From sequence record NC_054893.1: 49,847 nt of DNA, one strand, 5' to 3'. The stretch's first letter is position 1. Every line of letters starts with the position of its first letter. The translations under genes were made by a program, and so were the position numbers. Positions 1 to 41,699 of this stretch are shown one piece after another. The DNA comes from Escherichia phage vB_EcoS_W011D. The notes below the pieces were generated by a model, which did not search any database, had not been told where the DNA came from, and was given only the letters and a program-made list of their open reading frames with translations.

Positions 1-81
1 CGACGGGAATATGAATCCACGCTCTCACCTTCCTGTTTCATAGCGCCGTCAAGCGTCATAAGGTGCAACGTATAGAGCGCA
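1..81. repeat. Terminal duplication: 1-81 is identical to 49767-49847 (closure overlap of a circular or circularly permuted genome)
   Basis: Direct comparison of the first and last 81 nt of the window; the unique sequence is 1-49766. Confidence 0.9.
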
Positions 82-290
82 ACTGCTTTGGGGTATGAGT
101 CTTTAAAGCGCTTCACGCAAACAAACTCTTTAGCCAGTTCAACCCATGCCGTTAATAAGTCTGGATCGATTTGCTTCATTGGTGGCGCTATCTTTTGGAT
201 CTGCTCCGCAATTTCAATATCGGTGTATAATTCATCGACCATTTTCACTTCCTCCAGATATGACAAAGGGCGCTAATAGCGCCCCAGGGT

Positions 291-563
291 TTAAAACTCG
301 CCGCCGTCCTCTAATTCTTTTCGGCTCTTGCCCTCTTTGGGGTCTTTCTTGCGCTGCTTCTCTACGCGATCTTTGATTTCATTGGTTGCAGTGGAATCGT
401 CTTTGATTACCAGGTCGCCGCGATGAATCAGAGATTCAATGCCTTTATTGGCAAGTTCTTTTTCTGCAATTTCCATTTCGTCACCTGGCAGATAGCGATC
501 ACCTTTGAAGTGAATAGAGCAAACGCCAACATTGGAAAGCACAACAATTTTTTCTTTAGCCAT
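291..563 (-). CDS. Hypothetical protein, 90 aa, immediately downstream of the major capsid gene
   Basis: Track ORF; position in the head module; followed by a perfect hairpin GGGCGCTA/TAGCGCCC at about 268-284. Confidence 0.45.
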   Translation of the reverse strand: MAKEKIVVLSNVGVCSIHFKGDRYLPGDEMEIAEKELANKGIESLIHRGDLVIKDDSTATNEIKDRVEKQRKKDPKEGKSRKELEDGGEF

Positions 564-614
564 TTTTTAATCTCCATAAGTAAAAGGGGAACCCCGAAGG
601 ATTCCCCAATATTA

Positions 615-1586
615 TTACACGCCAGTGATTAACACAATAGTTAATGGGCGATAAATTGTCAGGCCAGTGCATTTAGAGGTGCAAGGCACTTTGAAATGCA
701 GGTCTTTAGGCTGCGCCGGAAGCATGTTAAACGCTTCTGGAATTTCAATAGACATATTCATCGGGTCTTTTTCATAGACCAGTACGCCCTTGTTGCCGTT
801 ACCGTCGTAATCTTCCAGTTCCGCGATTGCTTCAATGGTAATGCCGCCGTTCTGCTTCATGAAATAATCAAGATAGCTTTCGGTGGTTTCCGGCATACGA
901 ACCATAAGAACTTTACGGACGGATGGAGGGATCAGAATGTGAGTTGCTCGGTGCTGCCCGTCAGTTTGGGTTTCCAGCACTTCCAGCGCATCAGTCAGAT
1001 CGTTATAAGCCTGTTCCGCGCGTTTGGTTTTGGTTCCTGCGTCATACCATTTTTCCGCCGCAACAACTTTAGTGATGTTCGGATGTTCGAACACGCTAAT
1101 GATTTTATGAGGCTTGGAGCCTTTAAACACCAGGTGATTGACGAGGTGATCGTGTGCGCTCTGTGCCGCATTCGCTTTACGGTTGCTCAGGCTCTTACCA
1201 GTGCGTTGACCTGCTTTGATCTCGTCAATGGAAATCAGGAACGCGTTACCCAGGCGGAACACTTTACCAAACTCAGTAGACATAAGCGCGTCAACAGTTG
1301 GCAGGTCGTCGGTATAATCAGCGATGATTTTCGCGTAACCAACTTTATCAAAAGTCTGATACTCAAACGTTTTGTCGGTGTCGCTCAGTTCATTGGTAAC
1401 AGGGAACACGCGAAGCGCGGAGCCTACTGGATACTCTTTATTGTAAGCGGTAGAGCGGATCTTGTGTAGCTCTTGCGCCGTCCAAATACCCATATCGGAC
1501 GCATCTGATTTTACGCCTCGCGCTTGAAGATGCGCGGAAACAACGGAAGCGTCGAATTCATCATATTTCTTAGTTTTGCCAGTCAT
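615..1586 (-). CDS. Major capsid protein (presumed HK97-fold)
   Basis: 323-aa ORF with AAGGAGA RBS, placed after the scaffold/decoration genes and before head-tail joining genes; size and position typical of siphovirus major capsid proteins. Confidence 0.7.
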   Translation of the reverse strand: MTGKTKKYDEFDASVVSAHLQARGVKSDASDMGIWTAQELHKIRSTAYNKEYPVGSALRVFPVTNELSDTDKTFEYQTFDKVGYAKIIADYTDDLPTVDALMSTEFGKVFRLGNAFLISIDEIKAGQRTGKSLSNRKANAAQSAHDHLVNHLVFKGSKPHKIISVFEHPNITKVVAAEKWYDAGTKTKRAEQAYNDLTDALEVLETQTDGQHRATHILIPPSVRKVLMVRMPETTESYLDYFMKQNGGITIEAIAELEDYDGNGNKGVLVYEKDPMNMSIEIPEAFNMLPAQPKDLHFKVPCTSKCTGLTIYRPLTIVLITGV

Positions 1587-1630
1587 TGCTAATTCTCCTT
1601 AAAAGGGCTGTTTTAATTGACAGCCCAATG

Positions 1631-1650
1631 ATAGCATTTTTTGTTAAACG
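1631..1650 (+). promoter_or_regulatory. Conserved 20-bp box copy (ATAGCATTTTTTGTTAAACG), plus orientation inside the leftward structural block
   Basis: Matches the genome-wide box; followed 18 nt later by TAGAGC; sits between a decoration-like gene and the major capsid gene next to hairpin 1605-1626. Confidence 0.5.
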
Positions 1651-1662
1651 TGCAACAGATTT

Positions 1663-2472
1663 TTATGGTAGAGCCGGATTTACAAAATCAAGAATGTATG
1701 TATCTGAAACGCCAGAACCATCGTTAGCGTCCCAATTTATAAACACGGTTCCCTCTGCTGTTCCTGTTGGGGTTACAAGTCCATTCTGATCTACATCAGC
1801 AATATTGTGAACCTCGGATGTTCTTGCTTCATCTTCCCAGCATGACCATGTGCCAGTTCTATCCGTTGCATTATCCGGCTTAACGGTTACACGTAATTGA
1901 ATTGGTTTATTGTTAGGTTGCGGGGAATTCTCTGTAATATCAGACTCAATCAACGCCGCTTTAACTGGTACTGGTGGCGGTCCGATTGGTCGCAACTTAA
2001 CAACGGAAAGATTTACGCCAACAAGGTTAAATTGCTTGTCGTATTTCATAAAGTCGCCTGTAAAAGTCCAGCCGTCAACGATTTGACCATTGCCAGCATT
2101 AACAAAACCATCATCAGCAACATAAACAGCTTGACCGTAGTTAGGCGCTGAATCAATTTGCTCTGTCAAAGCCCAAACTCGACCGCGACGAACAACGTTA
2201 ATTGGATCTCCTGAACGGTAAACCATGTAGCCGCTCGACTCGTCAGAATATAAACAAGAGTGAGTGCGCAACGCGATCCCACAAGGCCGGATTTGCTGGC
2301 TGTACTTCGATGTGATCATGCGGTAGCCGTTAACGATTTCATCAACCATCACAACTTTACCAATCAGAATGGTTTCATCTTTGCAAACGCCAGTACCATC
2401 AATAATATAGCGACTTGAATCCAACATGCACCCTGGCTCAGTTGCACCCCACAAAACGCCATAATCAGACAT
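1663..2472 (-). CDS. Capsid decoration-like protein with C-terminal Ig-like (Big_2-type) segment
   Basis: 269-aa ORF with GGAGAT RBS; N-terminal half is paralogous to the 2535-3023 product (shared GRVW and TGDF motifs); position between scaffold and capsid genes. Confidence 0.5.
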   Translation of the reverse strand: MSDYGVLWGATEPGCMLDSSRYIIDGTGVCKDETILIGKVVMVDEIVNGYRMITSKYSQQIRPCGIALRTHSCLYSDESSGYMVYRSGDPINVVRRGRVWALTEQIDSAPNYGQAVYVADDGFVNAGNGQIVDGWTFTGDFMKYDKQFNLVGVNLSVVKLRPIGPPPVPVKAALIESDITENSPQPNNKPIQLRVTVKPDNATDRTGTWSCWEDEARTSEVHNIADVDQNGLVTPTGTAEGTVFINWDANDGSGVSDTYILDFVNPALP

Positions 2473-2534
2473 AATTTTATCTCCTATGAAAATAAAAAAG
2501 GCACTCTAAAAAGAGTGCCTATTATATCGCGAGA

Positions 2535-3023
2535 TTATGCGCCGAACAACTTCACCTCAATGAGATTGAGATCCTGGAATTTGGTAAAGTCACCAGTTGC
2601 GATCCAATCCGTTTCGATATCTCCGCCAGCGGTATCAGCAAAACCAGTTGCGGATTCAATTTTAACAGGGGTATCGTACTGCGGCGCTACTGCGTCTTTT
2701 GAAATCATCCAAACGCGCCCCTCGGTAATTACGTTGATGCCGCCGCCGTCCTCGTAAACCATTCGGCCATTTTCGCCAGTAGTCTGGAAGTGTGAGCGAA
2801 TCGCAACCCCGTAAGCGTGATCGCCAGCGCTGGTGATCGGCTTGATGATTTTGTTACCCATTGCATCAACGCCGCCATGCTTAACAGCAACGCCAACAAA
2901 AATAGACTTGCCGCCCTCGGTATTCAGAACACAAGCGCCGTCGATGTTATATGCGGAAGTGTCAGCAACTTGACCAGGTAAAGCGCGTGCCATGTTCTTT
3001 TGATAATATGCCGGAATAGCCAT
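2535..3023 (-). CDS. Capsid decoration-like protein (paralogue of 1663-2472)
   Basis: 162-aa ORF with AAGGAGA RBS; shares MVYxxG..INV..GRVW and TGDF segments with the neighbouring gene. Confidence 0.5.
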   Translation of the reverse strand: MAIPAYYQKNMARALPGQVADTSAYNIDGACVLNTEGGKSIFVGVAVKHGGVDAMGNKIIKPITSAGDHAYGVAIRSHFQTTGENGRMVYEDGGGINVITEGRVWMISKDAVAPQYDTPVKIESATGFADTAGGDIETDWIATGDFTKFQDLNLIEVKLFGA

Positions 3024-3035
3024 CTTTATTTCTCC

Positions 3036-4148
3036 TTACTTGTTAAGTTTAGCCAGGCGCGCATTCGGATCTAAAACCGTTTCGCCGTCCTGTTTTTCTT
3101 GTGCCGCATCGCCTTTGGTTGCGATACGTTGAGCCGCCATTTTATCAGAATCTTTAGCCAGATCAAAGGCAACATCAATGTAAGCGTCTGCTTTCATGGA
3201 AATGTCAGCGCCTGTAACCTCTTTGACGTAAGCAACTTTGATTGCTTTTGCGTCCAGGCCATCAGTTTTCACGCCTACTTCCTCGGCAACTTTTACAAGC
3301 TCTGCATGTGCTTCCGCGTCTGCTTTAGCCTGTGCAACGGCTTTTTCGATCTCAGCCGGAATGCCGTCAACTTTGGTTTTCAGTGCATCGCGCTCTGCTT
3401 CCAGGCCATCGGCTTTTACTTTTGCCGCTTCTGCGTCTGCTTTCACGTTTTCAATGAAGGTTGCAACTTCTTTTGGCACATCGAATTCAACAGCGCCGTC
3501 CAGTTTAATTTTTACAGTCATTACATGATCCTCTTTGTTTGAAATTTCGGTGTTATCATACGGGAATTCTTGCTCGCTATCAAGATTCAATTTTGCGATA
3601 CCCGCGCGACCTTTAAACACCATAGCGATATGGTTTACGCTGATATTGGTTTGCACCGCATCAAATCTAACCCAATCCGCGCTGTCTGCTTTCCATCCTT
3701 CCGGCATATCTTCATCAAAGAAATATTCACCAGTTGCGTTGTTGCCCCAGCCTGGTTTGTCAATATCAACGGAAGTGTAACCGACTGACAATTCGGCGGT
3801 TTGCTTTTTCTTCGCGCTCTGAATGGCTCGCTTGTCGTAAATGCTTAACGGAACCTCTACGCCAACCCCATTTGGCACGCCAGCACCAGCGCACGCGCCC
3901 ACAACAACATCCTTTGCATTCTCCGGCGTTACTGTGACGTGTCCGATTGTGATCGGCTTGCCGGAAAACGTTTCCAGTGAATCAGCCTTGAAAACCTCGG
4001 ACGCGGGGCGGAATTCTCGCCGCTCTCCGAAAGGTGTTTTGTAAATCTGCAACCCGATACGGGCAACAATCGGACGGTCTACCAGAAAACCATGTTCATC
4101 AATCTTTGCTTTTACCTGTACGCTATCAAAGCGTTGCACTTTTTTCAT
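3036..4148 (-). CDS. Scaffolding protein candidate with Ala/Lys/Glu-rich coiled-coil C-terminus
   Basis: Track ORF 3036-4205; start moved to internal Met (MKKVQRF) preceded by AAAGGAGAAA RBS; lies between head morphogenesis and decoration/capsid genes. Confidence 0.5.
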   Translation of the reverse strand: MKKVQRFDSVQVKAKIDEHGFLVDRPIVARIGLQIYKTPFGERREFRPASEVFKADSLETFSGKPITIGHVTVTPENAKDVVVGACAGAGVPNGVGVEVPLSIYDKRAIQSAKKKQTAELSVGYTSVDIDKPGWGNNATGEYFFDEDMPEGWKADSADWVRFDAVQTNISVNHIAMVFKGRAGIAKLNLDSEQEFPYDNTEISNKEDHVMTVKIKLDGAVEFDVPKEVATFIENVKADAEAAKVKADGLEAERDALKTKVDGIPAEIEKAVAQAKADAEAHAELVKVAEEVGVKTDGLDAKAIKVAYVKEVTGADISMKADAYIDVAFDLAKDSDKMAAQRIATKGDAAQEKQDGETVLDPNARLAKLNK

Positions 4149-10415: not shown

Positions 10416-11149
10416 TTGACTTTTTGCAGTTCAAGAAACGCATCAGAGAAGATTTTCGCACTCTTGACGGCTGCAATTAGTTGCTCTGCATTTCGCACCT
10501 GCGGGAACATGTCATAAAGCTGATCAATTACTGCCTCCGCCTTGATGCAATCAGCCTTGTGTTGTTCCGCTTCCTTTTCCAGTTTTGCGATCTGGCTTTC
10601 GGTGTACTGCTTACCATTCAGCGCAACGGTTAGCTCACTCGGTTTAAAGTTGCCGCTGGTGATTTGCATACCTGCATTGTGAACTCGCCAACCCTCACCT
10701 TTTACCGCCGTAGCATCAACGTTGCCGATTGTTACAACAAGCTCGCCATCTTTCCACTGCTCCAACTGGCCTTTGCTGTTGAGGAAATAACCGTTTTTCG
10801 GGTATGCAAATTGAGCCACCAGCTTTGCCGCGTTATCAGCGATTTGGCGAGCCGCCTTTAAGTGATCGCTTTCCCTTGCCGCGTTATAGATGGTTCCGCC
10901 AGGCTTGCACTCAGTTCTCAACACTGACGCCGTTACGTGCTTAACTGCTTCCTCAATGGTCGGGAATTCAACCAGGTTGAACTTTCCGCCGCGCAACCGC
11001 AACGAGCCTTTATCACCGATGTTAACGATCTGCTTTTTGCCTTTGTCGTTGCGCACTTCAACTTGATTTTCACCATAAGAGAAAAGCACTTCGTAAAGTT
11101 TGCCAGCCGTGAAGTTTTCGCCGTTAGTGGTAGGTTTTACATATTTCAT
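10412..11149 (-). CDS. Hypothetical protein (245 aa)
   Basis: Track ORF trimmed to MKYVKP start with GGGAGA RBS. Confidence 0.45.
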   Translation of the reverse strand: MKYVKPTTNGENFTAGKLYEVLFSYGENQVEVRNDKGKKQIVNIGDKGSLRLRGGKFNLVEFPTIEEAVKHVTASVLRTECKPGGTIYNAARESDHLKAARQIADNAAKLVAQFAYPKNGYFLNSKGQLEQWKDGELVVTIGNVDATAVKGEGWRVHNAGMQITSGNFKPSELTVALNGKQYTESQIAKLEKEAEQHKADCIKAEAVIDQLYDMFPQVRNAEQLIAAVKSAKIFSDAFLELQKVK

Positions 11150-31865: not shown

Positions 31866-33941
31866 ATGGCTATTTATCGCACTGGACAAGCGTCTATGGA
31901 CGCTCAAGGATACATCACCGGATATGATACAAAATGGCGTGAGCAACTTTCATTAATCCGCCCTGGTGCAACAATCTTTTTTATTGATGCTCCTTTTCAA
32001 GCGGCTGTGATTAGTGAGGTTATCAGCGATACACAAATCCGCGCCATCACAACTGGCGGCGCTGAAATTGGGCGAAGCAATTACATCATTTTGCTGCATG
32101 ACTCAATCACGGTTGACGGCCTGGCGCAAGATGTTGCGGAAACTCTGCGCTACTATCAAAGCAAAGAAACTCAGATCGAGGAAGCTATTGAATTTTTCAA
32201 AAACCTTGACCTGAAAACTTTGCAGGATTTGGTTAATCAGATTAAAGGTGATGCAGAAAAAACAGCCGCTGATCGCGCTGCAACTGAACAACTGAAAAAC
32301 GACACTCAACAGATAAAGGATTCTGCTGTCGCTGAAACAAACCAGATCAAGTCCGACACTGACGCAATCAAAAGCCAAACTCAACAGATCAAGGATTCCG
32401 CTGTAAATGAAACGGAAGCCATTAAGCAAGGGGCTTTTGGCGCTCGCGATCAGGCTGAATTGGCGCGTGATGCGGCTGGAAATCATGCCGTTGATGCTAA
32501 TAATGCAAAGGCTGGCGCTGAGACTGCGCGTGATGAAGCGCGTCAATGGGCGCAACAGGTACAGCCTGAAAATCTGTTACATAAAGATCAGAACCTTAAT
32601 GATCTTGCAAACAAAGACCTTGCAAGGGAGGCGTTGAAAGTTGAGGCGGTTAATTCTGTAAAAGGTCAGGCTGCTGGAGATTATAACTCTTTCCGCAACC
32701 CTGCATGGACTTATGAATTGCGGATCGCTAACAATGGCGAATGGCGCGTTGCAAGAAATAGCGATGGATCAACGTCTGCTCTTTCTGTTGGCGCTGGCGG
32801 TACTGGTGCGGAAAACGTAGAAGGCGCAAGGATAAACTTTAGGCTTCAAGGATTTGACACATTGTCAAGTGAGTCAAGGGTATTAAATCCTCAAAATGTA
32901 AGCCAATACATATTTATGAATTCGATTGGTGGTTGGGGTGCTTACGACTCTGAAAATGTAAGAGCAATTCCGCTATCGCTTGGCAATGGTGGAACTGGAG
33001 GTACAGATCAGAATAGCGCTCGCCATAACTTAGGATTATCCATTAATCACTCCCCTGTTTTTGCTGGTATTGATTTGCAAGGTCTTAACGGCACAACGTC
33101 AGGGATCATGGTTTTAAGAAATAGAGATGCTGGAGGCGCTCAAGTTTCATACTCAAGAATTTACCATGAAATTCAGGCTGGAGTTGCCAGAACAACAATA
33201 CAAACAACAAGAGAGGGTGGTGGTACTAACTATTTTCAGATTGATGAAACTGGACTTGTTAATAATGTTAGGGCGATAAGATGTTCTCCGTCAAATGTTG
33301 GTGGCGAGGGATTTACCGTTGGCGTTGTTCCTGGTGGAGGATTTGCAGCCTGGAGAGATCGACCTGCTGGAATGATTGTTGAGCACCCAAGCGATGATGT
33401 TGCGGTTAACGTATTGAAATCTGTCCGTTGGGGCGGAGATTGGGTTATGGGGATTGACGCTGCAAGGTATGGCGCTGGAGGTTGCGAGGTTCATCTAAAT
33501 GTAAGAGGTACTACATATACATTTAATGATGCTGGTTATGCGTCTGCTGTTCAGTGGGTTAACACATCCGATATTCGCCTGAAAGCAAATCTAAAAGAGA
33601 TTGAAAGCGCTAAAGAAAAAGTGAAATCAATAAAAGGTTACACTTATTTCAAGAGGAATAATCTTGATGAAGATGAGCACTCTTTCTACTCTGAGGAAGC
33701 TGGTGTAATAGCTCAAGACGTGCAAAGTGTTTTGCCGGAAGCGGTTTACAAGATTTCAGATTCTGAATATTTAGGTGTTAGCTATGGCGGGGTTACTGCT
33801 CTTTTAGTTAACGCATTCAACGAAATGAGCGATCAGATTGACAAGCAACAAGAGGAGATCGAAACACTGAAATCTGAAATTGCAGATCTTAAAGCGGCGT
33901 TTGAGGCGTTACTCAACAAGCCAACAACGCTGGAAAGTTAA
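31866..33941 (+). CDS. Side tail fibre / receptor-binding protein with C-terminal intramolecular chaperone (peptidase S74-type) domain
   Basis: 691 aa; repeat-rich coiled-coil shaft; C-terminal SDIRLKANLKEI (Ser-Lys dyad motif) followed by a heptad-like coiled coil; AT-rich distal half with AGA/AGG codons. Confidence 0.75.
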   Translation: MAIYRTGQASMDAQGYITGYDTKWREQLSLIRPGATIFFIDAPFQAAVISEVISDTQIRAITTGGAEIGRSNYIILLHDSITVDGLAQDVAETLRYYQSKETQIEEAIEFFKNLDLKTLQDLVNQIKGDAEKTAADRAATEQLKNDTQQIKDSAVAETNQIKSDTDAIKSQTQQIKDSAVNETEAIKQGAFGARDQAELARDAAGNHAVDANNAKAGAETARDEARQWAQQVQPENLLHKDQNLNDLANKDLAREALKVEAVNSVKGQAAGDYNSFRNPAWTYELRIANNGEWRVARNSDGSTSALSVGAGGTGAENVEGARINFRLQGFDTLSSESRVLNPQNVSQYIFMNSIGGWGAYDSENVRAIPLSLGNGGTGGTDQNSARHNLGLSINHSPVFAGIDLQGLNGTTSGIMVLRNRDAGGAQVSYSRIYHEIQAGVARTTIQTTREGGGTNYFQIDETGLVNNVRAIRCSPSNVGGEGFTVGVVPGGGFAAWRDRPAGMIVEHPSDDVAVNVLKSVRWGGDWVMGIDAARYGAGGCEVHLNVRGTTYTFNDAGYASAVQWVNTSDIRLKANLKEIESAKEKVKSIKGYTYFKRNNLDEDEHSFYSEEAGVIAQDVQSVLPEAVYKISDSEYLGVSYGGVTALLVNAFNEMSDQIDKQQEEIETLKSEIADLKAAFEALLNKPTTLES

Positions 33942-33959
33942 CAAAAAAATAATAACAAG

Positions 33960-33985
33960 GCGCGGCTCCGGCTGCGCTTTTTTTC
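33960..33985 (+). terminator. Rho-independent terminator after the tail fibre gene
   Basis: GC-rich imperfect hairpin GCGCGGC/GCTGCGC followed by T7. Confidence 0.55.
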
Positions 33986-34106
33986 GTCTTTATGCCAGTT
34001 GCTTACATTCAACTTACAAATGATTTATATCTTATTTTCAAAATCAGCGTAGAGTTAGCCGTGTGGCAAGTGGATACAAAATAAACTAACTTAATGAGGT
34101 GTTACT

Positions 34107-34205
34107 ATGTCTGATATAACTCTGTTACCAACTGGCGGAGATTTTGGTGGTGAAGCTGGGCGGCTGGCCTTGGCGGTGCTGGGAATGGCAGAAAGCGAAA
34201 AATAA
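34107..34205 (+). CDS. Candidate micro-ORF, 32 aa (MSDITLLPTGGDFGGEAGRLALAVLGMAESEK)
   Basis: ATG with GAGGTG RBS; ends at a terminator hairpin; in the 290-bp gap between the fibre gene and SSB. Confidence 0.25.
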   Translation: MSDITLLPTGGDFGGEAGRLALAVLGMAESEK

Positions 34206-34209
34206 AAAA

Positions 34210-34225
34210 GGAGCCGAAAGGCTCC
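34210..34225. terminator. Terminator GGAGCCGAAAGGCTCC (same hairpin as 37226-37241)
   Basis: Perfect stem with GAAA tetraloop; T-run on the minus strand after the SSB gene, weaker T-tract on the plus strand. Confidence 0.65.
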
Positions 34226-34234
34226 TTTAGTCGT

Positions 34235-35429: not shown

Positions 35430-36488
35430 TTATAAAAAGCCTTTGAATTGCTTGCGAACCCAATCAGGAGTGTCTAACTCGACTTCCGGCGCGCCGTTTG
35501 CGTAAGAAGGCCAAACATCATGCGCGTTGCACACTGCAAACGTGTTTATCACTCCCATGTATTGTAAGCGTCCGATCTTCAATTGCTCGCTACTCATGCG
35601 GAAAGCCAGCGGTAAAAATGGCTCTTTCTTTTCCTGCGCCAACAGTCTGACAACTACGGGGCGCGTTTCTTCTGGATAGGCTTTCTTAAACAGATCGTGT
35701 TGCAAAGCCATTTTCAAATAATAACCGTGATTGAATGCCAGGCGCGGAAACTCAAGCGGGTTTGCGCTCATTGTCGTTTTGTAGTCAGTGATAACAATCG
35801 CCTCTGGATAAATAATATCCTCGCAAATCGGCTGGCCTTTCTCGTCGTAACCAGTGATAAGCGTTGCGGTTACGTGCTGGCACACATCAACGTGATCCAA
35901 TCGCACCTTAACTTTTACGCCGTTGATAGTGCCGAAAATTGATAGCTCGCGTTGTGCCGTTGGGCTATTCATGCACGCGTTGTGCTCCGGTATGCTTTCC
36001 AGTACACGGCGCATCGTAACGCAAGCGTCGTAATCTTTCGCCGGAACCAATTCAACACCATCAGCCCTGGCCTCAGCCTCTGCGATCATTTCAATCAGCC
36101 ATAACACGTTAAGGCTTTCACCACAATCAACCATCATCTTGATCAGGTCTGGATAGGTTTTCCCTGTTGTACCTTTCAGGCCAAAAGATTTCAATTTAGC
36201 CGCCAATGCCGTTTGGCTTGTGATCAGGTTTTCGTAATCCTCCGGCGCTGGTGCTCTGCGGTATGTCTTGGCGAATAGCTCCGCGCTTTCAAAGTTTGTA
36301 TGTGACTGCGTACCAAAAACCAGCGGCTTTGCGTTTTCCTCGCGTTGACGGAACCGCCATGCAGCCGGACAACTGGAATGGATTTCTGCCAGGCTTGAGC
36401 CGCTTACATACTCAGCCGCCCAGCCTTTCGGATCGTGATACTCGTCGTTGCTTAACTGCGCGCTTGTGAAAACTTTAAAATCACTCAT
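35430..36488 (-). CDS. Recombination exonuclease candidate (RecE/YqaJ-like PD-(D/E)xK guess)
   Basis: Track ORF 35430-36527 trimmed to Met14 (MSDFKV) because the upstream codons overlap the -10 element; GGAG RBS; first gene of the exo-Erf-SSB module. Confidence 0.5.
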   Translation of the reverse strand: MSDFKVFTSAQLSNDEYHDPKGWAAEYVSGSSLAEIHSSCPAAWRFRQREENAKPLVFGTQSHTNFESAELFAKTYRRAPAPEDYENLITSQTALAAKLKSFGLKGTTGKTYPDLIKMMVDCGESLNVLWLIEMIAEAEARADGVELVPAKDYDACVTMRRVLESIPEHNACMNSPTAQRELSIFGTINGVKVKVRLDHVDVCQHVTATLITGYDEKGQPICEDIIYPEAIVITDYKTTMSANPLEFPRLAFNHGYYLKMALQHDLFKKAYPEETRPVVVRLLAQEKKEPFLPLAFRMSSEQLKIGRLQYMGVINTFAVCNAHDVWPSYANGAPEVELDTPDWVRKQFKGFL

Positions 36489-36515
36489 TTCATCATCTCC
36501 GTGTTGGTTTAACAG

Positions 36516-36543
36516 CATTCTAGCCATTTTTCGCGTTTAGTCA
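36516..36543 (-). promoter_or_regulatory. sigma70-type early promoter for the recombination operon (TTGACT - 16 nt - TAGAAT)
   Basis: On the minus strand, TTGACT and TAGAAT separated by 16 nt directly upstream of the exonuclease start. Confidence 0.5.
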
Positions 36544-36990
36544 ATAGGTGTAATGTTATTTTTTGTTTTCTGTTGTTTGTTTTCTATAGTGATAACAAAA
36601 TTGCATCGTAAGTTATTGATTTTGTCTTTGTTGTTTTTGTGTTTACCGTGTTCACAGATTTACGCCGGATATATAGGAATAGATACACATAAACAAAATG
36701 ACCATTACACAAAGTGAAATCACCACAACCAACCAAAAACCAATGAAACATAGAGAACAAAAAGAAACAAATAGATATATATAAATAAATAAACTCTTAT
36801 TTTTCATGTATATAGTAATATTTACTGTATGCTTATTGCTCAATAGCTGATTAAAAAATAAGCTAAATTTACGCCTACGCAAATTCGTGAACACTCTGGA
36901 ACAAAAGAAAACAAACGATAGCACTTTTTGCTAAAACTTCCGGTCGAGATCGTGTATAGTGAGCGCATCTAAACCAAAAGAGGAAAACAA
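36530..36990. other. 460-bp AT-rich non-coding region carrying the second copy of the ~150-bp element shared with 17030-17650
   Basis: No credible ORF; shares ACAAATAGATATATATAAATAAATA and GTGAACAC boxes with the first region, same orientation and spacing. Confidence 0.6.
36917..36936 (+). promoter_or_regulatory. Conserved 20-bp box copy (ATAGCACTTTTTGCTAAAAC) upstream of the Cor-like gene
   Basis: Followed 17 nt later by TGTGTATAGT (extended -10-like). Confidence 0.55.
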
Positions 36991-36991
36991 A

Positions 36992-37219
36992 ATGAAAAAG
37001 ATGATTGCCGTTTTAATTGCAGCCGTTGCCCTGACTGGTTGCGCAAATATGCCGAAACGCGAATGCACCGCAATTTATGAGAATAGCGGAATGGATTATG
37101 AAGTTGCGATCTTTGGCGTTAAGCGAATTAACGATCACACATTCGTGAAGCCTGGCTATCCTTTCAGTTATCATTGGGTTAGCATTGAAAACTTTAAAAA
37201 CGCAGATTGCAGCATTTAA
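36992..37219 (+). CDS. Small lipoprotein, Cor/Llp-like superinfection-exclusion candidate
   Basis: Track ORF trimmed to MKKMIAVL start with AAGAGGAAAA RBS; lipobox LTGC; 75 aa; encoded opposite to and just beyond the tail-fibre genes. Confidence 0.5.
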   Translation: MKKMIAVLIAAVALTGCANMPKRECTAIYENSGMDYEVAIFGVKRINDHTFVKPGYPFSYHWVSIENFKNADCSI

Positions 37220-37225
37220 AACAAA

Positions 37226-37250
37226 GGAGCCGAAAGGCTCCTTTTTTATT
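37226..37250. terminator. Bidirectional terminator GGAGCCGAAAGGCTCC plus T6
   Basis: Identical hairpin to 34210-34225, between convergent genes. Confidence 0.7.
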
Positions 37251-37920
37251 AGTCGTATGCCGCCGTGTTAATTGCTGTAACCGCAACGCCTGTATTTAAA
37301 TAACCCGCTGGCGATCCTCCTGCGGATTGGTTTGAAGCCGCATGAATCCTTGTTGTCGAGCCATTAAAATTTGCTGCCGTATATGCCGAAACGTTAACTA
37401 TTACTGGCTGCTGACCAGGAATGTAAACCTGCACTAAAGTTGCCCCCATTAATCTAGGCATTACAGCGTAAGATCCTGATAATGTTTGATCTATGTAAAT
37501 CCCTCCTCCGCTTCCTGGTGTTCCTATAGTAACGAGATCCGATAATGGCTTGCTCTCATTTGTTAATATACATGTCCCGCTTGCGTCCCATATAGCCATA
37601 CCCCATTTTGGGATTGGTTGAGGAAATCTTGCAAATAAATAACAAGTTATGGTGAATAGCGGAACGTTCCTACCCTGCGCGGAGCCGCTAAAAACAATAT
37701 AATCACCCTGCCTACTACACCCTAAAGCAGCGCCCCAACTACATTTTATAAATCCTATTGCTGAATAGGATGCAGGACAATAAACCCTTGATACAGCACT
37801 AACATATTGAGCCGAATCTCTTGTTGCTACCGCCTCAGTTCTTGAATATAAAACAAAAGGCGTTGATTCAGGAGTAACAAAAGTTTGCCCGTTATAATCT
37901 ATCATTGCACCGTAGGCCAT
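37249..37920 (-). CDS. Hypothetical tail-associated protein (223 aa, AT-rich gene, N-terminus MAYG)
   Basis: Track ORF; last gene after J; AT-rich codon usage unlike the rest of the tail module. Confidence 0.45.
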   Translation of the reverse strand: MAYGAMIDYNGQTFVTPESTPFVLYSRTEAVATRDSAQYVSAVSRVYCPASYSAIGFIKCSWGAALGCSRQGDYIVFSGSAQGRNVPLFTITCYLFARFPQPIPKWGMAIWDASGTCILTNESKPLSDLVTIGTPGSGGGIYIDQTLSGSYAVMPRLMGATLVQVYIPGQQPVIVNVSAYTAANFNGSTTRIHAASNQSAGGSPAGYLNTGVAVTAINTAAYD

Positions 37921-38229
37921 TTAAGCATTCTCCAGATAAACAATTAATTCGCATTGTGACGCTGGGTAATAATTATATCCAAGCTCGGATGTAGTAGCCG
38001 GATGAATAATTATAGAATTGCCTGAAATTTCTATTCTTCTCCCTACTTGCTGGCCTCCAGCGTCAAGACCTACAACATATCCAAGTTTTTTACCTGCCGG
38101 AACATTAAAAGACCATTGACCAGAAGTCTGACCAGATGCAAGAGGGATATTTGATATAACCGAAACAGGCTTGATCCCGTAGTTGTTATAAACCCCGTTT
38201 GCATCCCATGTTGATATACCATAAGCCAT
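37921..38229 (-). CDS. Hypothetical tail-associated protein (102 aa, N-terminus MAYG)
   Basis: Track ORF 37921-38268 trimmed to MAYGISTW start with CAGGAGA RBS; shares the MAYG N-terminus with the next gene. Confidence 0.45.
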   Translation of the reverse strand: MAYGISTWDANGVYNNYGIKPVSVISNIPLASGQTSGQWSFNVPAGKKLGYVVGLDAGGQQVGRRIEISGNSIIIHPATTSELGYNYYPASQCELIVYLENA

Positions 38230-38273
38230 AATAAAATCTCCTGTAAAGGTGGGGTGTCTCCACCCCACATATA

Positions 38274-41200
38274 TTACCAGTATCCGGTTAAACGTCCAAT
38301 CTGAACACGTAAAACGCCGTTTGCATCCCTAACACTGATCGTTTCGTTTGTCATTTTCATGGAACCATCGCCAGGAGTGGAGCCATAGTTTTCAAACGTG
38401 CCGTTTTTATCCAGCCTCCATCCTGATTGGTTCCAAACATAGTTGTTTGATTGGATGAAGTTACCGATCATGGCGTTTGTGATTGAACCGTCTTTCACTA
38501 ACAGGCTGTTAATGAAAACCTGGTTATTCTCTACCACAAAAGGCAACGTATACGTCCCGCCTGTCGAACTTGTCATGATCGCAAATCTTCCGGCATCAAA
38601 CAGGATTTGTGAAATCAACCCTTGCGGGCTGTTTGATAACTGCATGACCATTCCTGCGCTGTACTTCTGCCCGTTGTATGTCAAGCCCAATTTCATTGCG
38701 TATTGAGCGCCAACGCCGCCAACGCCAGCCCATGAATCAAGTTTTTCAGTCAGTGCGGATTCAACATCGCCAAACTTCGCCGTTAACGCTGTATCAGCCG
38801 AAACACGCGCCTCTGTTTCGTTTGCAATAGCTTCCTCAACTCGCGTTAACTGCCCCTGGATATCATCACCAATCTGTGATTTCAATTCCTCAATGGCTGT
38901 TGCTCGCGTTTCTGATTCTGTTGCAATTGCCTGATCAAGTCTCGTTACTTCGCTAGTTATCTCCTCGTCAAATTCAGCCTTGAGTTGCGTCATTGCGGTA
39001 ACGCGCGCCTCCGTTTCATCTGCGATCAATTGGATTGATTGCCTAAACTCTGCTTTGCGCTTGCCGTTTTCCTTCCTCATTATTCTAACGTCCGTATCAT
39101 TCGCCAATGCGTTTTGAATGATGCTTTGCGCCTGATCTTTAATCTTGTTTGCGCTGTCAATGGCGTTTTCCTTGATTTCCTTTCCGCCCTCAGTATTCCA
39201 GATATCGTCTAAAATGTCTCCAATAATATCTGATACATCATCGGAAGCCATGCCGCGCACAAAATCAGACCAGCCGGAAACGTTTCCGATCCTGTCAACA
39301 CTGCGCACGCGATACCACACAACTTTCCCCGCTGGTAGCGTGCTGTGCCAGTATTCAAACTGCGGATATGGGACAAGCGTTAAAAGGCTTGAGTTTTCCG
39401 CCGTTCCATCTGGTGATTGATGCAACTCAATATAGGCCGTGTCTCCGGTTCCCTCTGGCATACCCCATTTTACGCGAATACCGAAAACCTCATTTGTTGA
39501 TGCAGTAAGGTTTATAGGCTTCCCAGGCTCACCAACTTTACCAGTCAGCGATGCGGTAACTATTCCAGACCAGGGCGACGTAGAGCCGGAAGCGGAAACG
39601 GATCGCACGCGAACGTAATAAACTCCAGCGTAAATCCCCTCCACCTCAATCTCTTTGTTTGCCGTCTGTGGGACGTTTAACCAGTTGCTGTTGTCTTTCC
39701 TCCATTGAACCTCGTATAAGCTCGCGTAAGGCACTTTGTCCCAGCTAACAACCATCGTTTCAACGCTAACACCCTGAACAATGCGAGAGTAAGAGGAAAC
39801 GGCAACATTCTCTGGCGGCTGCATTACGTCAGGTTGCACAATGCTTGTTGGCCTGTCGTCGATGTTAACGCCATAATCAATCTCGTCGTATTTGTTCGGA
39901 TCGTATTCAACGGCTGTGATTGAGTAAGTAAACTCGTCCTCGTTGTCTCCCTTGGTGATTGTCGTCACAACGTATTGCTGCAATGCAATGTCTGTGCGGT
40001 CAATCGCAAACACCGTATCTGGCTGAACGTCAAAGCCAAAACCTATGTTTAGCTCAATGGTTTTTCCGTCTGCGCTCACGTTGGCAATGGTGCGTTTTAC
40101 TGGCTTCCCATCTGGCTTATTTACCATGATGAAATCGCCTGGCCGCGCATCTACTTTAAACGGTAGGAAAACTTGCAGACCGGATACCTCCATAACTCGC
40201 CCCGAAAGGTTGAGCGTTAATGCGCTGCTCCAGAAGTTATCCGCAATCGCCACCACATCACCTATTGACGGGATCATGCCCTCAAGACCTGTTGCAAAGT
40301 TTACCGTTGTGCTGCGCAAGTTGGTTTTCAGAACCCATCGCCCACGGCGGTTTGCTTCGCTGCGTCGTGTGCATCCAATCGCTGTAATGCTCGTTGGATT
40401 GTAGCCAAACCGTAACGCCGCCTCCGTTTCAAAAACCCCCTCAACGTCCTGTTGATACATGTTTTGCTCGTCGTCGAAAGTCACATTGCACTGTGTGTAC
40501 ATGCTCTTTTCGCTGGCGAATGTGTAGCTAAAATCTCCATTAACAACGTTATCATTTGTGAAGATGTAAGACGGCTCTCGCGGTCTATCAACGACAATTG
40601 AAAGGCTCTCACCGTTCCAGAAACTCATTCCACGGAAGATTGAACAAATATCCCTTACAAGCTGATACGCTTCAATCTGGCTTTGGATCACAACGTCGCA
40701 AAGGTAACGCGGCTCTGTTCCGCCCTTTCCATCTGGAACCATCTGATCGCAATATTGCCCCGCCTCGTAAATGCTCCACTTATCAAGTGGAATTCCCAAC
40801 TCACGTTGATCGAGTCCGTAACGCTGATTGGTTATCAAGTCATATAGGATGTAAGCCGGATTGTTAGACCATGCTTTTTTCCAGGTTCCATCCCACGCGC
40901 CGTGGTATTCACGCAAAACAGGATCGTAATTGCTCGGAACGTTTATGATCTTCCATTTCTTTTTTACCGCTATCCGTGGGATCTGGTTCGGGAATAGCTC
41001 GGAATCAAATTCCACATAAACAAGACCTGTCAGCGGATAACGAAATTTAGCGTCTACAACTTCCGCGTAGCTCTGCAACTTAATCAGATCTGTAACCTTT
41101 GACGATGTGCTATCAGGAGTAACACGGCGAACGCGAAACAATACTTGCTCGTTAAAAGCTGGCAAATCAATTCTGCGGCTTCTGTCGTAACCGCTGCGAG

Positions 41201-41699
41201 TTTTACCGCTTATCGTGTCGCTCAAAATCTCATTGTATGAGCCGCCATCAACAGCCATATCAACGGCATATGTTACGCTTACACCAACGAGATCGCCGTT
41301 GTCCTCTTGCTTTATACCAGTAGGCATAAGGATTTTTATTCTGATCGCAGATAGGTTTTTGTTGGTTACTGCAATCACATATGGAGTGTCTGTTTCAAGA
41401 TTTCGCGATACTGTTATTTCGCTTGAGGTGTCAGTAAATCCCTGGATGTAATCTTGATCTTGAGTGCCTGGCCTGAACTCAGCCGAAACGCCGCTATAGT
41501 TATAAGTGCCATCGTCATTCATAACCGGAACATCATCAAGATACAGGTCACGCAATGAAAACGTTTCGTCGCACTCACCATCGGAAACAGCAAGTAAGAT
41601 CTTGATTTTGTTTATCGAAATCAGGTTATCTTCCATTTCCTTTGGCACATACGGTTTTGATGAACCGCCTTTACTGCCGCTTATCACATTTTTAGCCAT
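38274..41699 (-). CDS. Central tail fibre / host specificity protein (lambda J-like)
   Basis: 1141-aa ORF directly after the tail assembly I-like gene in the conserved M-L-K-I-J order. Confidence 0.75.
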   Translation of the reverse strand: MAKNVISGSKGGSSKPYVPKEMEDNLISINKIKILLAVSDGECDETFSLRDLYLDDVPVMNDDGTYNYSGVSAEFRPGTQDQDYIQGFTDTSSEITVSRNLETDTPYVIAVTNKNLSAIRIKILMPTGIKQEDNGDLVGVSVTYAVDMAVDGGSYNEILSDTISGKTRSGYDRSRRIDLPAFNEQVLFRVRRVTPDSTSSKVTDLIKLQSYAEVVDAKFRYPLTGLVYVEFDSELFPNQIPRIAVKKKWKIINVPSNYDPVLREYHGAWDGTWKKAWSNNPAYILYDLITNQRYGLDQRELGIPLDKWSIYEAGQYCDQMVPDGKGGTEPRYLCDVVIQSQIEAYQLVRDICSIFRGMSFWNGESLSIVVDRPREPSYIFTNDNVVNGDFSYTFASEKSMYTQCNVTFDDEQNMYQQDVEGVFETEAALRFGYNPTSITAIGCTRRSEANRRGRWVLKTNLRSTTVNFATGLEGMIPSIGDVVAIADNFWSSALTLNLSGRVMEVSGLQVFLPFKVDARPGDFIMVNKPDGKPVKRTIANVSADGKTIELNIGFGFDVQPDTVFAIDRTDIALQQYVVTTITKGDNEDEFTYSITAVEYDPNKYDEIDYGVNIDDRPTSIVQPDVMQPPENVAVSSYSRIVQGVSVETMVVSWDKVPYASLYEVQWRKDNSNWLNVPQTANKEIEVEGIYAGVYYVRVRSVSASGSTSPWSGIVTASLTGKVGEPGKPINLTASTNEVFGIRVKWGMPEGTGDTAYIELHQSPDGTAENSSLLTLVPYPQFEYWHSTLPAGKVVWYRVRSVDRIGNVSGWSDFVRGMASDDVSDIIGDILDDIWNTEGGKEIKENAIDSANKIKDQAQSIIQNALANDTDVRIMRKENGKRKAEFRQSIQLIADETEARVTAMTQLKAEFDEEITSEVTRLDQAIATESETRATAIEELKSQIGDDIQGQLTRVEEAIANETEARVSADTALTAKFGDVESALTEKLDSWAGVGGVGAQYAMKLGLTYNGQKYSAGMVMQLSNSPQGLISQILFDAGRFAIMTSSTGGTYTLPFVVENNQVFINSLLVKDGSITNAMIGNFIQSNNYVWNQSGWRLDKNGTFENYGSTPGDGSMKMTNETISVRDANGVLRVQIGRLTGYW

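Follow-up and report, generated by a model that had tools for sequence, protein, structure and literature searches.

The genes that follow the J-like tail tip gene of Escherichia phage vB_EcoS_W011D (W011D; sequence record NC_054893.1, analysed as one window of 49,847 bp) very likely form a host-recognition module of the FhuA type, W011D being a T1-like phage (Drexlerviridae, Changchunvirus). This cassette, downstream of J, consists of two minus-strand genes, coding for proteins of 102 and 223 amino acids (aa), and of a convergent plus-strand gene coding for a lipoprotein (Table 1). The two minus-strand products would be borne by J, the larger one binding FhuA, and the lipoprotein, Cor, would then disable FhuA. 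A locus of this kind determines the outer-membrane protein that a phage uses as well as the cells that become immune to re-infection; it is therefore what to read when host range is to be predicted, and what to exchange for re-targeting.

The three open reading frames (ORFs) lie on the strands reported in a first-pass annotation of this DNA, and both minus-strand products start with MAYG as it had noted: the 102-aa protein begins MAYGISTWDANG and the 223-aa protein MAYGAMIDYNG. The island had been given 38268 as its end coordinate, which corresponds to the GTG of a longer, mechanically called ORF. The small gene really starts with the ATG at 38229, as judged from an AGGAG 8 nt upstream and from the homologues, almost all of which have M-x-[YWF]-G at their N-terminus. 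There is no gap between the TAA of the 102-aa gene and the ATG of the 223-aa gene (37918-37920), which indicates that the two are translationally coupled. J, small and large genes succeed each other directly on one strand, the order of FhuA-type pairs, and cor adjoins this receptor-binding cluster, 29 nt from the 223-aa gene, from which it is separated by a common terminator. The J-like protein itself matches PHROG 31 ('central tail fiber J'). Finally, the pair had been described as AT-rich. This is real but modest, with a GC content of 0.424 over 37249-38229 compared to 0.469 in J and 0.462 genome-wide (6th percentile among windows of the same size), and clearer at third codon positions, where GC (GC3) is 0.31 and 0.27 in the two genes and 0.49 in J. 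The feature is therefore real, and was correctly described and interpreted; this type of cassette had already been published.

Table 1. Features of the W011D locus (positions in the window).
Feature	Coordinates	Strand	Description
J-like central tail fibre / tail tip protein	38274-41699	minus	1141 aa; Pfam Phage_Tail_Tip, FNIII-A_GpJ, Phage-tail_3
GC-rich hairpin between J stop and 102-aa gene	38249-38268	minus	8-bp stem, GAGA loop
Small tail-tip gene	37921-38229	minus	102 aa; N15 gp22 / phi80 gp22 family
Large tail-tip gene	37249-37920	minus	223 aa; N15 gp23 / phi80 gp23 family
Bidirectional intrinsic terminator	37223-37244	both	common to convergent tail operon and cor
cor, lipoprotein gene	36992-37219	plus	75 aa; signal peptide and lipobox LTG/C
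Divergent intergenic region, exonuclease gene to cor	36528-36991		464 bp; GC 0.30; presumed cor promoter and leader

Both minus-strand products are full-length members of the families that make up FhuA-type pairs. The 102-aa protein matches PHROG 557 (E 5.6e-29, residues 1-101 of 102), and the 223-aa protein PHROG 425 (E 2.3e-58, residues 1-223 of 223). Homologues of the small protein are present in 344 phage records and those of the large one in 347, with the same taxon distribution, meaning that the two form an obligate pair. In a 2026 preprint (10.64898/2026.04.02.716166), membership of the FhuA family requires an identity of >30% with nearly full coverage. When aligned with the proteins of FhuA phages at full coverage, the 223-aa protein reaches 46-58% (46% for Bas09, 49.6% for Bas17 KarlBarth and 46.9% for phi80, coverage 97-100%), and BLASTP against the BtuB-type protein of Bas06 gives nothing meaningful. 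On the basis of these identities, and of a Cor allele identical to that of an FhuA phage, we consider it highly probable that FhuA is the receptor of W011D. The closest full-length alleles in the phage collection are those of Motto (75% for the large protein and 74% for the small one), and vB-Eco-KMB25 has a 102-aa protein 80% identical. The T1-like cassette, cor included, is also seen in records carrying other host labels, Motto (ON843697, 'Pseudomonas') and the Campylobacter-labelled A13a, A14a, A15b, A16a and A110b (MG0656xx); these labels look doubtful.

The lipoprotein had been called Cor-like, and its sequence makes it very probably Cor, a superinfection exclusion protein. It matches PHROG 1119 ('Cor superinfection exclusion protein') with an E-value of 1.7e-26 over residues 1-74 of 75, and is 100% identical in amino acids to the protein of the FhuA phage Bas09. 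Homology to characterised Cor proteins extends over the full length: identity is ∼50-52% with the annotated Cor of the T1-like phages SH2, IME18 and phi2013, 37% (E 6e-20) with phi80 Cor, where both cysteines of the mature part and the YPFS.(H/R)WVS block are kept, and 31.6% with HK022 cor. Altogether, Cor was found in 233 phage records. The lipobox reads MKKMIAVLIAAVALTG/C, and the Pfam lipid-attachment site LPAM_1 is detected above cut-off (E 5.5e-4). The residue at position +2 after the lipidated cysteine is an alanine, so that the protein appears to be devoid of an inner-membrane retention signal. The same first-pass comparison had included Llp of T5. There, Cor is a sequence homologue of the W011D protein, but Llp a functional analogue without sequence relationship: a phmmer search with W011D Cor against all chains of the Protein Data Bank (PDB), among which Llp (8A60) should be present, returned spurious matches only (e.g. 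PvuII, Kelch) and no Llp chain. As for the BtuB phage Bas06, its exclusion lipoprotein (10546-10815) has a signal peptide nearly identical to that of W011D Cor (MKKLIAVLIAAVALTGC versus MKKMIAVLIAAVALTGC), matches PHROG 1119 at E 4e-11, and is loosely similar to W011D Cor in its mature part.

The closest relative of W011D is the BASEL phage PaulSarasin (Bas09; Drexlerviridae, Tempevirinae, Changchunvirus), whose genome is ∼97% identical; in the tail region, identity at the DNA level is 97%. W011D is listed as the closest relative of Bas09, whose terminal receptor is FhuA (Maffei 2021, PMC8594841, S5 Table). Within the cassette, DNA identity between the two phages is ∼100% from 37040 to ∼37265, 25-75% at ∼37275-38160, and ∼90% from 38161 onwards. 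This replacement of ∼885 bp leaves untouched cor, the plug of the small protein (the N-terminal hairpin peptide described below) and the final codons of the large one. At the protein level, identity to Bas09 is 46% for the 223-aa protein and 61% for the 102-aa protein. With the low GC3, the replacement makes the initial proposal of horizontal acquisition essentially right. An allele replacement of the two tail-tip genes beside an identical Cor goes beyond the published accounts that we found. The locus of the lateral tail fibre (31866-34234) is also unlike that of Bas09: in W011D, the fibre has 691 aa with a C-terminal Peptidase_S74 chaperone domain and is directly followed by ssb, and in Bas09 (1-3705 of the stretch compared), a different fibre end is found together with a 'sugar-binding protein' and three small genes.

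Which protein of the pair contacts the receptor? Both diverge between W011D and Bas09, and receptor-predictive k-mers were found in putative binding proteins and accessory proteins alike (preprint 10.64898/2026.04.02.716166), as expected if the roles were reversed, the 102-aa protein contacting the receptor with the 223-aa protein as accessory or chaperone, or if the two built a composite binding surface. However, it is the 223-aa protein that has the long hypervariable stretches (residues 31-90 and 161-210), and overall conservation is higher in the small protein, with a mean column identity of 66% in its family versus 57% in that of the large one. This makes reversed or shared roles improbable. 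From sequence and model, the 223-aa protein is probably the FhuA binder, and there is about an even chance that the 102-aa protein is an adaptor or a co-binding partner.

A second alternative is that the allele replacement changed the receptor, W011D using another one than FhuA and its Cor gene being a leftover. The replaced segment does contrast strongly with flanks that are 90-100% identical to Bas09, and PHROG 425 and 557 cover at least two receptor types. Nevertheless, the 223-aa protein, when compared with those of proven FhuA phages, clearly exceeds the 30% identity that defines the family, and the BtuB type is without detectable pairwise similarity. Moreover, Cor is intact and identical to that of an FhuA phage, and exclusion protein and receptor module agree in the phages examined. 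A switch of receptor is accordingly very unlikely, and we keep FhuA as the predicted receptor.

The model of the large protein (mean predicted local distance difference test, pLDDT, 90.5) had a unique strong fold match, the LptD-binding protein of phage Oekolampad, solved by cryo-electron microscopy (cryo-EM; PDB 9rpt). The AlphaFold2 (AF2) model of the 102-aa protein is a 7-strand beta-sandwich with residues 1-20 disordered. A fold search in BFVD gave 16 significant matches, and no functional information, as all were uncharacterised phage proteins. Pfam contained nothing usable for either protein (one sub-threshold Ataxin match), and the profile of the 223-aa family found no match among PDB sequences even at E 10. 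With the 102-aa family profile, CBM77 and tailspike proteins were matched in the PDB, all at E ≥ 0.04, and were discarded. An exhaustive HMMER search with this same profile yielded ∼60 relatives of ∼100 aa, nearly all headed by the N-terminal motif described below. It also hit ∼90 large proteins with 2 to 19 weak stretches each; the six that were checked are five FG-GAP_2 repeat proteins and one giant Ig/cadherin-repeat protein. We regard these as repeat matches rather than homology, because they add up matches of a G/S/V-rich strand pattern to repeats, and because the small protein is modelled as a sandwich instead of a propeller.

The suggestion that the pair consists of fibre accessory or adhesin proteins was essentially right, as they are a conserved pair of the receptor-binding locus whose large member has the fold of a verified receptor-binding protein (RBP). 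A quite different role is implied by the names 'outer membrane protein' as well as 'membrane associated protein' given in PHROG and GenBank, and by the KanT1 paper (PMC13164509), which assumes a link with exclusion as the genes associate with cor: the two would be membrane proteins assisting Cor in superinfection exclusion. These names derive from the N15 annotation, not from experiments, and neither protein has a signal peptide, a transmembrane or a hydrophobic segment (maximum Kyte-Doolittle hydropathy 1.08 and 0.50). The genes are also part of the J operon and lie on the other strand from cor, with a terminator in between, and the fold of the 223-aa protein is again that of a protein verified to bind a receptor. 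The strongest counter-argument comes from Klebsiella phages, where the pair is found in 111 records and a Cor match in 2 only. In the Klebsiella Webervirus phages the small and large genes follow J, and in Sushi (2178-3174) a terminator comes directly next, with no cor. The pair therefore works independently of Cor, and a helper role in exclusion is highly improbable. Just as improbable is that the two are tail-fibre assembly factors absent from the mature virion: small genes after fibre genes often code for chaperones, and we found no proteomic evidence of virion presence in the literature, in so far as its text was available, but their fold and N-terminal motif are common to a protein shown to bind its receptor directly, and their alleles track receptor specificity across phage families. 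The membrane names are thus unsupported, and the best label for both products is tail-tip receptor-binding proteins.

The common MAYG start turned out to be part of a longer motif, [YWF]G..[WI]D..G, which heads both the small (MAYGISTWDANGV) and the large protein (MAYGAMIDYNGQTF). The resemblance first noticed over four residues is thus longer than that, and beyond chance. A further copy is found within the 223-aa protein, at residues 105-116 (KWGMAIWDASGT; hhalign E 5e-5 to 9e-5), so that the second half of this protein is headed by it as well (KWGMAIWDASGTCIL, residues 105-119). It is also present at the head of the LptD-type protein of Oekolampad (MGAGILIDYNDGRP), in the BtuB pair (MAYGYAIYDEQGRD and MYGMQITKPDGSIW, with the internal copy HGIAFYNSAGQM) and in the YncD pair (MPGLQAWDASGNLV, with the internal copy SGYLDVFDASGNLVW). 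Hidden Markov models (HMMs) of the motif were searched against 1,354 six-frame ORFs. With the 102-aa N-terminal and the 223-aa internal versions, all the best non-self matches were proteins of RBP loci, at the expected positions; with the 223-aa N-terminal version, only background was found beyond the phi80 orthologue. The YncD-type proteins were not retained as relatives, their matches being at the level of the motif only (E 0.017 and 1e-3).

Beyond the motif, the FhuA and BtuB types are related over much of their length, profile comparison giving 203 co-linear columns for the large proteins (E 2e-5) and an E-value of 2e-7 for the small ones. Within W011D, the small protein and the N-terminal half of the large one are co-linear over 70 columns (E 0.003), with congruent predicted strand positions. 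Between the two halves of the 223-aa protein, only the 18-residue motif aligns (E 0.31). At the sequence level, these alignments hint at an internal duplication of the 223-aa protein but do not prove it.

The end of J has features of the same kind. Its last ∼50 residues (38277-38420) contain two motif-like copies, GWRLDKNGTFENYGSTP and ISVRDANGVLRVQIG, and its C-terminal ∼60 aa are nearly identical in W011D, Bas09 (FhuA) and Bas06 (BtuB), and close in Bas10 (YncD) and phi80. The pattern D.NG.[FY].NYG..P has just two occurrences in the six-frame translation, one in J (DKNGTFENYGSTP) and one in the small protein (DANGVYNNYGIKP), and none in shuffled sequences. In the small-protein family, residues 11-20 are the most conserved stretch (entropy 0.32). 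Being most conserved yet disordered in the AF2 monomer, they are likely a docking peptide; more generally, sequences and models make it likely that the conserved N-terminal [YWF]G..WD..G hairpin peptide is a docking element. The gene call P0117 (139 aa), from a metagenomic fragment, joins the C-terminus of a phi80-like J in frame to the small protein (…GRLTGCSDMAYGIQTWDASG…). Because an apparent frameshift terminates it, this fusion is most likely a sequencing or assembly error.

These observations lead to a tentative proposal, to which we give rather less than an even chance. The receptor-module families for FhuA, BtuB, YncD and LptD, which were recently termed 'unrelated', might all derive from one ancestral unit, a motif-headed beta-sandwich of ∼100 aa plugging onto the J tip. 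The small protein would be one such unit, the large one two, and the Oekolampad protein a fusion of three; the latter has 321 aa, close to 102 + 223. The hairpin would copy the last repeats of the J tip (DKNGTFENYGSTP, VRDANGVLRV) and serve as a universal plug, daisy-chaining the units onto J. If this were true, the boundaries of the swap between W011D and Bas09, which lie after the small-protein plug and before the C-terminal AIN(T)AAYD, would mark natural cut sites for re-targeting such phages. The motif across receptor types and the shared fold go beyond the published accounts that we found; both are hypotheses awaiting a tail-tip structure or a multimer model.

Taken together, the data suggest the following scenario for W011D. 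As the sequence shows, transcription of the 102-aa and 223-aa genes goes with that of the late tail operon behind J, and their translation is coupled. We infer that J carries both proteins at its tip in the virion, where their N-terminal hairpin peptides probably dock them. The 223-aa protein would bind FhuA irreversibly and trigger DNA ejection. Cor, transcribed convergently, would be exported, lipidated and sorted by the Lol system to the inner leaflet of the outer membrane, where it would disable FhuA from the periplasmic side, so that the infected cell is protected and progeny is not lost on cell debris.

Several points weigh against this scenario. Membership of the PHROGs alone does not fix the receptor, since the BtuB-type proteins of Bas06 belong to PHROG 425, 557 and 1119 too. 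The strong divergence of the two genes from their Bas09 counterparts (see above) makes a changed or widened specificity possible. The literature on W011D contained neither receptor data nor experiments that we could find. Virion location is unproven, because cryo-EM of T1 left the J C-terminus and any protein attached to it unresolved, and we found no virion proteomics of T1-like phages listing the tail-tip proteins; the available text of the Sfin-1 paper does not list them. Finally, the FhuA contact was assigned to one of the two proteins by inference.

The non-coding parts of the locus were also analysed. The bidirectional terminator proposed between cor and the tail operon was recovered as a hairpin (9-bp stem with 5 GC pairs, GAAA loop) that is predicted to terminate in either direction; a T-run, TTTATTAGTC, comes after the plus-strand call, and a weaker tail, GTTTTAAATG, after the minus-strand one. 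The hairpin between the J stop and the 102-aa gene, GTGGGGTG-GAGA-CACCCCAC, has no T-run and is kept in Bas09. Folding of 38225-38285 (minus strand) gave −17.8 kcal/mol (z −2.1). Judging from its sequence, this element could be an attenuator lowering read-through, or an RNA-stability element.

The region upstream of cor is strand-asymmetric, T-rich at 36554-36640 and A-rich thereafter up to 36990, and is ∼95% identical to Bas09. No repeats were detected in it beyond low-complexity A/T runs, and no Rfam family matched anywhere in the window. The lipoprotein gene had been credited with a box-type promoter of its own, which we did not recover: a consensus scan of this region found no sigma-70-like site on the plus strand, and the best candidate read by hand, TTGCTA ... 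TATAGT, has a spacer of 21 nt. On the other side of this region, the exonuclease VIII ORF (35430-36527, minus strand, 365 aa) probably starts 13 codons later, with MSDFKV at 36488; in Bas09 this protein is annotated in its 352-aa form. A promoter-like TTGACT-16-TAGAAT (10 of 12 matches; 36544-36517, minus strand) overlaps the first codons.

For W011D itself, the practical outcome is a prediction of FhuA as receptor and a corrected annotation. The fold shared by the FhuA and LptD types, and the presence of one motif across receptor types, may interest those who engineer the specificity of Drexlerviridae, and need structural confirmation.

The cassette arrangement is published as an FhuA-specific receptor-binding locus with its superinfection-exclusion protein, and its reading in W011D is in this respect not new. 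Maffei 2021 (PMC8594841) reported that, in all phages tested, the terminal receptor is matched by the locus downstream of gpJ, which also pairs with exclusion proteins. The 2026 preprint (10.64898/2026.04.02.716166) confirmed this on 255 phages, with four protein families for FhuA, BtuB, LptD and YncD, supported by AlphaFold3. A three-gene 'Cor cassette' was described in T1, phi2013 and KanT1 (KanT1 paper, 2026, PMC13164509), and, according to Wietzorrek 2006 as cited there, in T1, HK022, N15, ES18 and phi80. We identified the same cassette in phi80, HK022 and Dhillonvirus phages.

Compared to the cassette of phi80, N15, HK022, ES18 and T1, that of W011D has the same three genes in the same order after J, of similar sizes (∼100, 224 and 75-77 aa) and homologous over their full length. 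In phi80, J is followed by gp22 (100 aa), gp23 (224 aa) and cor, annotated as similar to N15 gp22, gp23 and cor; Bas09 and Motto have this order too. In phi80, cor is co-directional with J, whereas in W011D, Bas09 and Motto it is convergent, with a common bidirectional terminator. W011D Cor resembles the Cor of phi80, N15 and HK022 in its lipobox, size, two cysteines and YPFS.(H/R)WVS block, but belongs to a divergent T1-like subtype.

The BtuB module of Bas06 (KarlJaspers) falls into the same PHROGs as that of W011D (425, E 1.5e-44; 557, E 5e-22; 1119 as given above). Its three genes are all on the strand opposite to J, and its receptor is BtuB. Identity between the proteins of the two phages is ∼21-29% in profile alignments, and the large one is undetectable by BLASTP.

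The LptD type is known from cryo-EM of the Oekolampad (Bas18) protein on LptDE, with the Rtp45 exclusion lipoprotein blocking it. According to the models, the fold of this protein (PDB 9rpt, PHROG 1265) is shared by the W011D 223-aa protein. At the sequence level, however, the latter matches PHROG 425 only, and not PHROG 1265, with an hhalign match to the Oekolampad protein confined to the first 15 residues (E 0.085). Oekolampad has one protein, encoded on the strand opposite to J and directed at LptD, where W011D has a pair.

Finally, Llp and pb5 of T5 follow the same logic as the W011D module: FhuA is bound by a protein of the tail tip and put out of action by a small lipoprotein that faces the periplasm (PMC9586334). 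They have no sequence relationship to W011D Cor or to the 223-aa protein in our PDB searches. For KanT1, Cor and Llp were nevertheless found similar in fold (TM 0.69), and an AF3 (AlphaFold3) model docks Cor at the periplasmic face of FhuA, as Llp does (PMC13164509).

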